A stretch of DNA of 64,000 nt from an uncultured Candidatus Micrarchaeota archaeon (GTDB lineage: Archaea > Micrarchaeota > Micrarchaeia > Burarchaeales > Fermentimicrarchaeaceae): NCBI GenBank assembly GCA_963760615.1, contig CAVXDX010000003.1:1-64000 (forward strand), read 5' to 3'. Position 1 is the stretch's first letter. Every line of letters starts with the position of its first letter. Below, piece by piece: positions 23,759 through 57,192 of the stretch. The notes below the pieces were generated by a model that was given only the letters and a program-made list of their open reading frames with translations, did no database searches and was not told where the DNA came from. The translations under genes and the position numbers were made by a program.

Positions 23759-23983
23759 TTACTTCTCCCAAATTCTCCTTTTCTTTGTCTTCTTTACTAT
23801 CTCTTCATCACTCACTTCGTATTCTTGCTCTTCCTCCCACAACTCATCATCCCAGTTGTCATCATACTGGTCGTCTGCTGCGGAATACTCCATCTCCTCT
23901 TCATCCTCTCCGAGCTGTGCATCCTTCATGTCCTGCCACTGCTCCCACAGCTTCTCATCCTCTTCATCCATGCTTCTTTCCAT
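23759..23983 (-). CDS. Small highly acidic protein with basic C-terminal tip (74 aa)
   Basis: RBS-like GGTGGGAGG directly before the ATG. D/E-rich with Trp/Tyr, ending KKTKKRRIWEK. Confidence 0.65.
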   Translation of the reverse strand: MERSMDEEDEKLWEQWQDMKDAQLGEDEEEMEYSAADDQYDDNWDDELWEEEQEYEVSDEEIVKKTKKRRIWEK

Positions 23984-24109
23984 CCTCCCACCTTTTTTCC
24001 TCTCAGCTGTTCATAGAACAGTCTGAAAATAGGGCGACCCTCATCGCACACGCTCAGGCCTTCCCTGAGCATGACTTACGCTAGGGAATTTTAGCTCGCA
24101 AGAATCGGC

Positions 24110-24421
24110 TTAGTTAAACGCGAATTGCTCTCCCCAAGCGCCCATGCCCTTTCTCGCGGAGCGCTCGCTCAAAAGCAGGAAGCAGGACTCACAGTACTCA
24201 TTTCCGTCCAAAAAGACCCTGCCTTCCCAGCTCTCAAGCTTCCTGAAGCATCCGGCGCATCTCCTGCCTGCTTCATTGTCGTAGTAGCACTCGCTGCATA
24301 TTCTCATGCCGCTGAACCATGCAGTTTCATAGCCAGCTACATACCTTCCGCACCTGATGCAATGAAAGCCCTCAGCCTGCGCCATCAACTTCGCTCCGCA
24401 TTCCGGTTTGTCATTACCCAT
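24110..24421 (-). CDS. Cys-rich zinc-binding protein, LIM/double zinc-ribbon-like (103 aa)
   Basis: Four CxxC pairs (CIRC, CSEC, CAGC, CESC) spaced like two zinc fingers; GGGGGTGG RBS-like element upstream. Confidence 0.7.
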   Translation of the reverse strand: MGNDKPECGAKLMAQAEGFHCIRCGRYVAGYETAWFSGMRICSECYYDNEAGRRCAGCFRKLESWEGRVFLDGNEYCESCFLLLSERSARKGMGAWGEQFAFN

Positions 24422-24519
24422 TTAACCCACCCCCGGCTATGCGGAAAAAATCCGCTGGAAAAAAATCAAATGGCGCTAAAACCTCGCAGAAAAAGATGCA
24501 TAAAATATGACTCTTGGCA

Positions 24520-24679
24520 TAGAATAAGACATACCAGCTACGCTATACGAAAATAGCTTCCAAACCCACCTTACGGCGGTTTCACCCACTCTGCGCTGCA
24601 TTCATCCACGGGCAATGACTCCCGGAGATAAGCCCAGCGCGGGCTTAAGTCTGCCTTGCGACAGATTCGATTTATTCTA
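24520..24679 (-). ncRNA. Candidate structured non-coding RNA (~160 nt, multibranched, pseudoknot)
   Basis: Terminal stem TAGAATAA/TTATTCTA; hairpins capped by GCAA and GTAA with G-U pairs valid only on the minus strand; loop GCGCT complementary to downstream AGCGC; TTTATATA box at 24712-24705. Confidence 0.65.
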
Positions 24680-24704
24680 AGTGATAAGAACTAGCCAAAG
24701 GTGG

Positions 24705-24712
24705 TATATAAA
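24705..24712 (-). promoter_or_regulatory. TATA box upstream of the candidate ncRNA
   Basis: Minus-strand TTTATATA ~25 nt before the 5' arm of the terminal stem. Confidence 0.55.
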
Positions 24713-24770
24713 ACTAACGTCCTGAGAACAAGACTGTCAGAGAAAACGTATAAAAACAAAGAAACCTAGA

Positions 24771-24851
24771 CTACTCTTCCTCCTCATCTTCCTCGTCTAG
24801 GTCTTCTTCATCCCACTCCTCATCTTCATCATCCTCTTCATCCTCGTCCAA
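24771..24851 (-). CDS. Ultra-acidic micro-protein (26 aa, MDEDEEDDEDEEWDEEDLDEEDEEEE); alternative GTG start at 24860
   Basis: Not in the ORF track. GGGGTGAT RBS precedes the TTG; GAAAGGTATATAAA BRE/TATA lies at ~24903-24916 (minus); a T-rich stretch follows the TAG. Confidence 0.55.
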   Translation of the reverse strand: MDEDEEDDEDEEWDEEDLDEEDEEEE

Positions 24852-24927
24852 GCAAATCACCCCGTGGGCTGAAATATTGCTTGTTGATTACCTAATAAAG
24901 GTTTATATACCTTTCGCATATTCCTCT

Positions 24928-56977: not shown

Positions 56978-57014
56978 AACTCCACCAGTCTAGACTTTCT
57001 AGACAGAAGCACCA

Positions 57015-57087
57015 CGCCCTGGCCGGGATTTGAACCCGGGTCACGGACTCGACAGGCCCGGATGCTGGACCACTACACTACCAGGGC
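57015..57087 (-). tRNA. tRNA-Asp (GTC)
   Basis: GCCCTGG/CCAGGGC acceptor stem, CGGGC-CTGTCGA-GTCCG anticodon arm, GGTTCAAATCC T arm; CCA not encoded. Confidence 0.95.
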
Positions 57088-57089
57088 AA

Positions 57090-57192
57090 TCCCGCCAGGG
57101 TGATTTGAACACCCAACCATCCGGTTTCTGCTGGAAGAAAACCAGCAAAGCAAGCTACAGCCGGATGCTCTACCAAATTGAGCTATGGCGGG
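57090..57192 (-). tRNA. tRNA-Tyr (GTA) with 29-nt intron at 37/38 (57126-57154)
   Basis: C1:G72 acceptor CCCGCCA/TGGCGGG, A73, TCCGG-CTGTAG^intron^A-CCGGA; BHB-like central helix CTGT/GCAG with 3-nt bulges. Confidence 0.93.

Follow-up and report, generated by a model that had tools for sequence, protein, structure and literature searches.

This locus raises the question of what kind of element occupies positions 24520–24679 of the window (the whole 64,000-nucleotide stretch of DNA that was analysed), and what it does there. A preliminary description had placed an unrecognised RNA of about 160 nt on the minus strand, with five hairpins enclosed by an 8-bp closing helix, two GNRA loops, a pseudoknot between a GCGCU loop and a downstream AGCGC, and a promoter of its own. 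All of these elements (hairpins 1–5, the closing arms, the loop and its partner, and the TATA box) lie at the minus-strand coordinates given for them. The guess that the DNA came from a DPANN archaeon was also right, the organism being a member of the Micrarchaeota: the host genome, 16 contigs totalling 1.14 Mb, falls in the same genus as Candidatus Fermentimicrarchaeum limneticum.

No known family was found to account for the element. At the gathering threshold, the 4227 models of Rfam 15 matched the window only at two tRNAs (57015–57192), and even at E ≤ 10 the hits were chance ones in other places and nothing overlapped the RNA on its own strand, either in 24300–24900 or at four homologous loci. 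ARAGORN reported only the tRNA-Asp at 57014–57088 and gave no tRNA or tmRNA at the RNA. Beside this tRNA-Asp, at 57090–57192 on the minus strand, is a tRNA gene with a 32-nt insertion (an intron), which Rfam finds and ARAGORN misses. Like the housekeeping RNAs of archaea (RNase P, SRP, 5S, C/D and H/ACA), the element is small and structured, and it shares its promoter geometry with the RNase P and SRP RNA genes of the genome. Unlike them, it has no Rfam match, and identity with archaeal RNase P RNA (RF00373) or SRP RNA (RF01857) was rejected because the genome's copies lie elsewhere, at C12:33575–33816 (86.3 bits) and C8:193692–193992 (86.5 bits), respectively. A full-text literature search found no paper describing the RNA and a look-alike search of the atlas returned nothing specific. 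The description of the RNA as unrecognised therefore stands.

With z-scores of −2.1 (minus strand) and −2.0 (plus strand), the folding energy of the region does not stand out. The case for an RNA therefore rests on comparison with related sequences. Thirteen distinct homologues were obtained from genomes and metagenomes of Fermentimicrarchaeum-like Micrarchaeota (DPANN), through BLAST searches, a scan for a DNA pattern and the sequence preceding homologues of a zinc-finger protein encoded downstream. Helices were scored on a MAFFT alignment of these homologues that was not fitted to any structure. The model of the preliminary description pairs 90.3% of the cells, compared to 34–46% when the 3′ partners are slid, and 11 pairs show compensatory change, compared to 6.0 ± 1.6 in shuffles. 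The description had proposed both an Rfam search and a covariation check among homologues; the latter upholds the RNA, with compensatory changes in three of the hairpins and in the loop pairing. The claim that the G–U wobbles work on one strand only is borne out across the alignment, where ∼39 G–U cells fit the minus strand and are mismatches on the other. The plus strand scores 3.8 bits with a covariance model that gives the minus strand 121 bits.

Were there no functional RNA here, the conservation would have to reflect a DNA-level element or a short coding frame. The modest folding z-scores on both strands would fit such a reading, as would a 41-aa ORF that overlaps the RNA in the window, but this ORF is not conserved: its start codon is lost in L002 and one of the hairpins (P4 below) is an indel of 18–20 nt. 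Furthermore, the substitutions are compensatory and not three-periodic, and the G–U pairs are strand-specific. We consider this reading scarcely credible. On the comparison of the homologous sequences, the RNA is real, lies on the minus strand, is ∼100–220 nt long, is conserved and matches no known family. It and its immediate surroundings comprise the following features.

24705–24719, minus strand: BRE-like purine stretch and TATA box (TATA 24712–24705)
24680–24684, minus strand: start motif TCACT
24650–24665, minus strand: P1 hairpin, 6 bp, GCAA tetraloop, with covariation
24630–24646, minus strand: S1 hairpin, 6 bp, whose 5-nt loop (24640–24636) is the first strand of the putative pseudoknot
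24604–24629, minus strand: P3 hairpin, with an internal mismatch and an 8-nt loop (24620–24613)
24593–24597, minus strand: 3′ strand of S2, partner of the S1 loop, ∼40 nt downstream of it
24581–24592, minus strand: purine-rich junction after the pseudoknot, near-invariant
24562–24582, minus strand: P4 hairpin, optional, with covariation
24520–24561, minus strand: variable 3′ domain, with a 9-nt conserved box (24545–24537), hairpin 5 and the 3′ closing arm
24441–24494, minus strand: spacer with the U-tracts U5 (24494–24490), U7 (24465–24459) and U6 (24450–24445)

Within the core, P1 is paired in 98.7% of cells and shows compensatory change in four of its six pairs among the 13 homologues, with the GCAA loop present in 12 of them. 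P3, which sits inside the pseudoknot, is 87% paired, with compensatory change in four pairs and a near-invariant 8-nt loop. The purine-rich junction is kept in 10 of the 13 homologues, altered in L068 and L070 and absent in L073. The last of these (L073:1246–1339) is the minimal natural form, ∼95 nt in length and consisting of P1, S1/S2 and P3 together with a 5′ hairpin, P0. The stems vary while the loops and junctions are nearly invariant, as in RNAs that have a specific tertiary fold or a binding pocket.

The S1 and S2 helices define the topology of the core. S1 is 100% paired in all 13 homologues; since five of its six pairs never vary, however, its pairing says nothing either way. S2 (GCGC/GCGC) is 98% paired, with G–U pairs in four sequences and one compensatory event (GCAC/GUGC in L002 and L017), so both stems of an H-type pseudoknot are kept across the homologues. 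RNAalifold instead prefers a nested fold, in which the 5′ strand of S1 pairs with a GGGU downstream, in the purine-rich junction. This nested helix is 95.8% paired, but it is broken in L072 and L068 and missing in L073, whereas S1 is intact in all. We therefore favour the pseudoknot. It is favoured and not proven, because the invariance of S1 leaves no covariation to decide between the folds. The GCGCU/AGCGC pairing of the preliminary description is thus well supported as a pairing, and its topology is the likelier of two.

The remainder of the original model was less robust. Of the five hairpins, 1, 3 and 4 (P1, P3 and P4) covary and hairpin 2 (S1) is invariant; hairpin 5 (24557–24542) is paired in only 60% of cells, no better than shuffles, and was dropped. 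P4 is found in eight of the 13 homologues, where it is 100% paired with two compensatory pairs, and is absent from L004, L005, L070, L072 and L073. Its loop varies and is often not GNRA, so that only the first of the two GNRA loops is a conserved feature. The closing helix (24679–24672/24527–24520) was compared, using RNAduplex, with 300 composition-matched shuffles per sequence. It is at chance level in the window (−6.7 kcal/mol, against a shuffle mean of −7.0 kcal/mol) and in 11 of the 13 homologues, improving on shuffles only in L018 and L074. We treat it as composition-driven, reflecting an A-rich 5′ end that faces a U-rich 3′ end. Two further helices were rejected on the same grounds of doing no better than shuffles: an alternative 3′ helix (74% paired) and P0 (66% paired), which is restricted to homologues outside the clade of the window. 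We regard P4 and the 3′ domain as variable add-ons to the core.

The claim of a separate promoter is well founded, although transcription is predicted. The BRE/TATA element is conserved in 13 of 13 homologues, with the TATA box 17–21 nt before the start motif, and the same promoter geometry is seen in the genome's RNase P RNA, SRP RNA and tRNA genes. The TCACT start motif is intact in 11 of the 13 homologues and has a single base changed in the other two. From the TATA-to-start spacing of 22–23 nt that is usual in archaea, transcription is predicted to begin at ∼24682, slightly upstream of the 24679 given in the preliminary description, which had put the TATA box at the distance expected from the 5′ end. 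Taking these elements together, we hold with high confidence that there is a minus-strand RNA with its own strong BRE/TATA, a start at ∼24682 and a core of ∼95 nt comprising P1, the S1/S2 pseudoknot and P3.

As for the 3′ end, it is probably at a U-tract beyond 24520. There are three such tracts within 55 nt. U7 is invariant in all 13 homologues, and U6 sits in the loop of a small hairpin (24455–24441) that is missing in L018 and L074. T7 runs are rare in the genome (0.15 per kb per strand). Counted from the zinc-finger start codon, U7 is at −45 to −41, and in none of the other 738 genes is a T7 run so placed. Genome-wide, T-runs after stop codons are not enriched over A-runs, and this statistic is no help in calling terminators. 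A pyrimidine-UAGCG motif recurs on the minus strand at 24537–24545, at 24452–24457 and at ∼24078–24083, in the IG1 spacer described below, and is conserved in most homologues; with ∼0.7 occurrences expected per 700 nt, the motif may have arisen by chance or may be where a protein binds.

Downstream of the RNA, on the same strand, are three genes and two structured spacers.

24110–24434, minus strand: LIM-like double zinc-finger gene, 103 aa, with its Shine–Dalgarno sequence (24434–24428)
23984–24109, minus strand: IG1, the spacer between the zinc-finger and acidic genes, conserved and with no canonical TATA box
23759–23983, minus strand: acidic D/E/W-rich protein, 74 aa, with a basic tail
23662–23748, minus strand: IG2, with a three-segment hairpin (23748–23689), U-runs and the ATPase TATA box (23669–23662)
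22430–23632, minus strand: HerA/FtsK/VirB4-type ATPase (DUF87), ∼400 aa, by its match to Pfam DUF87

The zinc-finger protein matches Pfam LIM (E = 1.2e-5), has five conserved Cys groups and is 93–104 aa long across the loci. Its structural model (pLDDT 64) gives weak LIM-domain fold matches and no functional lead. In one genome the gene (G001:C58:32779–33077; L022/L032) is interrupted by a TGA and matches in two pieces, whereas L017, a near-identical metagenome copy, is intact. The acidic protein is conserved in all loci (62–96 aa) and has no family match. IG1 is conserved in 13 of 13 loci. Its fold comprises three hairpins, the first with compensatory changes, the second with a loop that varies and the third short, and it may act as a further functional RNA element within the transcript that carries the RNA. 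A covariance model gave no match that would indicate paralogy between IG1 and the RNA. The long hairpin of IG2 is conserved in 12 loci; together with its U-runs it has the look of a terminator of the hairpin type, an unusual feature in archaea.

Matches of the ATPase to CedB/CedD, HerA, DndH, mad8 and a phage terminase family are weak; they place it among the DNA translocases. It is a shortened member of a family that is common in Micrarchaeia, whose other members are 520–630 aa long. Compared with relatives P0035–P0037, P0039 and P0053, it lacks a C-terminal extension of ∼150–200 aa, which, when read by eye, holds a winged-helix-like stretch and a PD...E.K nuclease-like motif. The gene of a closer relative, P0037, follows genes for a zinc ribbon and a small membrane protein and lies beside an AbiE pair. 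No such RNA was seen at the loci of P0037 or of the distant relatives of 520–630 aa; the unpublished genome G098 enters only the tally of these distant relatives.

The order of RNA, zinc-finger gene, acidic gene and ATPase gene, all on one strand, is the same in every homologue. The RNA lies 100–160 nt upstream of the zinc-finger gene, with zero insertions between them in 13 lineages. On the upstream flank, in comparison, insertions of 1–2.6 kb split the RNA from the gene for a Fap7-like kinase in three lineages. In only one of these lineages, L016 (G006), the insertion carries an IS200/605-type TnpB gene (350 aa), which extends from ∼1.2 kb to 55 nt upstream of the RNA start. The RNA and strong orthologues of the zinc-finger gene co-occur in five of five genomes, and both are absent from the other 24 genomes of the order. 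A sister genome, L076 (G004:C37), has a clean deletion of ∼2.1 kb corresponding to window 22625–24753, which runs from the RNA promoter to ATPase residue ∼337 and leaves a 64-residue ATPase remnant with a stop codon. The RNA and cassette are thus accessory and lost as a block. A 26-aa ORF made almost entirely of D and E, with its own TATA box and Shine–Dalgarno sequence, lies at window 24771–24851 on the minus strand and is called as a gene of 29–35 aa in most homologous loci. It survives the L076 deletion and so is not part of the lost unit. These neighbours were not seen in the preliminary description: the RNA is welded to its downstream genes and may be a leader rather than a free RNA.

The distribution of the RNA is narrow. 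Two covariance models place it in five of 29 genomes of the order and five of 151 sampled Micrarchaeia genomes, the second model adding none to the original five across the 151. All five belong to one family and two genera, with a single copy in each. Two genomes of the same genus, 96% and 91% complete, were searched and the RNA was not found. Since it was found neither in 24 of the 29 genomes of the order nor in these two congeners, we regard the RNA as accessory and not housekeeping. In viral contigs, a loose pattern gave chance matches only, none of which was confirmed by the covariance model.

Across the genome, TTTAAA/TATAAA-type TATA boxes are most frequent between −44 and −37 relative to the start codon. 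The ATPase gene (∼−37) and the acidic micro-ORF upstream of the RNA have such a TATA box; the zinc-finger and acidic genes do not. The simplest reading of the locus is a single unit of RNA, zinc-finger gene and acidic gene that would be transcribed from the RNA promoter, with the U-tracts internal to it and possibly acting as a conditional stop. Our best reading, which we put forward tentatively and at somewhat short of an even chance, is that the RNA is a cis-acting leader gating read-through. The RNA would be the 5′ part of the zinc-finger and acidic gene transcription unit. Polymerase would either stop at the U-tracts, above all at U7, producing a short stable RNA of ∼190–225 nt, or continue into these two genes. 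Which of the two happens would depend on the folded core, either by itself or with a factor bound to it; the factor could be a cassette protein or a small ligand. The hairpin and U-runs in IG2 would end the unit just before the ATPase promoter.

A leader is consistent with the position and strand of the RNA, with its constant linkage to the genes and with the absence of a canonical TATA box ahead of the zinc-finger gene, yet U7 occupies the usual TATA position. Because it lies where TATA boxes peak, U7 could be an odd TATA box that gives the zinc-finger gene a promoter of its own, although poly-T is a poor TBP site. Fluoride (crcB) riboswitches are one of the few riboswitch classes in archaea. 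Like their leaders and other riboswitch or attenuator leaders, the RNA is a structured element with a pseudoknot between a promoter and co-oriented genes, and has covarying stems, invariant junction bases and U-tracts after it. Unlike riboswitch leaders, it has no Rfam match, and its core is more than 100 nt from both the Shine–Dalgarno sequence and the start codon, across a poorly conserved linker that does not resemble known riboswitch expression platforms. No conserved alternative pairing of the core with the U7/Shine–Dalgarno region was found, RNAalifold offering only a 4-bp contact. A pairing of the start motif with the Shine–Dalgarno sequence was rejected, as it amounts to these 4 bp and part of it may precede the transcription start. 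Three points also weigh against a leader: the zinc-finger and acidic genes suggest no ligand, three consecutive U-tracts could simply end an independent RNA gene, and the promoter geometry is that of stable RNA genes. The more specific proposal, of a novel class of regulatory leader in a DPANN archaeon, with a pseudoknotted sensor that binds a ligand or protein and so decides between stopping at U7 and read-through, whether riboswitch-like or by processive antitermination, is one that we consider doubtful. The known processive antitermination RNAs (HK022 put, and EAR of the eps operons of Bacillales) are from bacteria and phage and act on bacterial RNA polymerase. From general knowledge of these systems, the locus is like them in that a folded RNA heads a unit in which termination signals must be read through; it has no similarity to them in sequence or structure.

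Several of the same observations would suit a stand-alone small RNA that ends at the U-tracts and acts in trans as an RNP subunit or cofactor of the cassette proteins (the zinc-finger protein, the acidic protein and possibly the HerA/FtsK-type ATPase), with the zinc-finger gene expressed from a weak U7-box promoter. The stable-RNA promoter geometry, the strong serial termination signals after the RNA and the location of U7 at the usual TATA position are as expected of such an RNA, and RNP or tertiary-folded RNAs typically have such a compact core, with its conserved tetraloop and its invariant loops and junctions. The RNA also co-occurs, and is lost, with the whole cassette, including the separately promoted ATPase. 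Conversely, a run of seven Ts makes a poor TBP site and is not used at that place by 738 other genes. LIM-like fingers are known for binding proteins and not RNA, members of the ATPase family act on DNA wherever their role is known, and no such RNA accompanies those relatives of the ATPase that have zinc-ribbon and small-protein partners. We judge an RNP partner somewhat unlikely, though it stays close to the leader. The phi29 pRNA is also a structured RNA (120–170 nt) with loop-based pairings of pseudoknot type and a functional tie to an ATPase of the FtsK/HerA superfamily. The present case differs: the covariation is that of a pairing within one molecule, the locus belongs to a cell, and the ATPase gene is preceded by a putative terminator and then by a promoter of its own. 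A phi29-like pRNA (RF00044) was rejected, with no Rfam match and no match in viral contigs. Omega RNAs of TnpB/IscB are likewise pseudoknotted and ∼150–200 nt long, and a TnpB gene ends 55 nt upstream of the RNA in L016. This identity was discarded, as 12 of the 13 loci have no TnpB nearby. In contrast to an omega RNA, the RNA has its own TATA box, which in L016 is located after the TnpB stop codon, and the near-identical RNA of L070 occurs without TnpB.

Two other roles appear still less probable. A trans-acting regulatory RNA would pair with transcripts through conserved loops such as the 8-nt loop of P3, its cassette neighbourhood being incidental or limited to regulation of the cassette mRNA. 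The invariance of the single-stranded stretches, the separate promoter and the U-tract terminators would all suit it, but strict synteny and co-loss with the cassette would not, and the conserved bases lie in a pseudoknotted core rather than in an open seed region; we consider such a regulator improbable. A new class of small self-cleaving or otherwise catalytic RNA is more improbable again. The pseudoknot, embedded hairpins and invariant junction bases do resemble small ribozymes in outline, but no ribozyme family in Rfam matches even at E ≤ 10, the topology (as read from the sequence) lacks the P3 element of HDV-like ribozymes, and the RNA occurs once in each genome, showing no association with repeats or mobile elements. 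The leader remains our preferred reading, with the RNP partner next to it.

The RNA is the first example of a new family of structured non-coding RNAs that is restricted to one lineage, the Fermentimicrarchaeum-like Micrarchaeota. Its narrow range (two genera and their environmental relatives) limits its general reach. To our knowledge, very few structured non-coding RNAs are known from DPANN archaea, and few cis-regulatory RNAs are documented in archaea as a whole. Here, a well-delimited RNA with covariation, a small core and riboswitch-like conservation is tied to an accessory cassette. If the RNA does gate read-through, it would offer a way to study how termination by the archaeal polymerase is regulated; if it instead partners a protein, it would define a new RNP.
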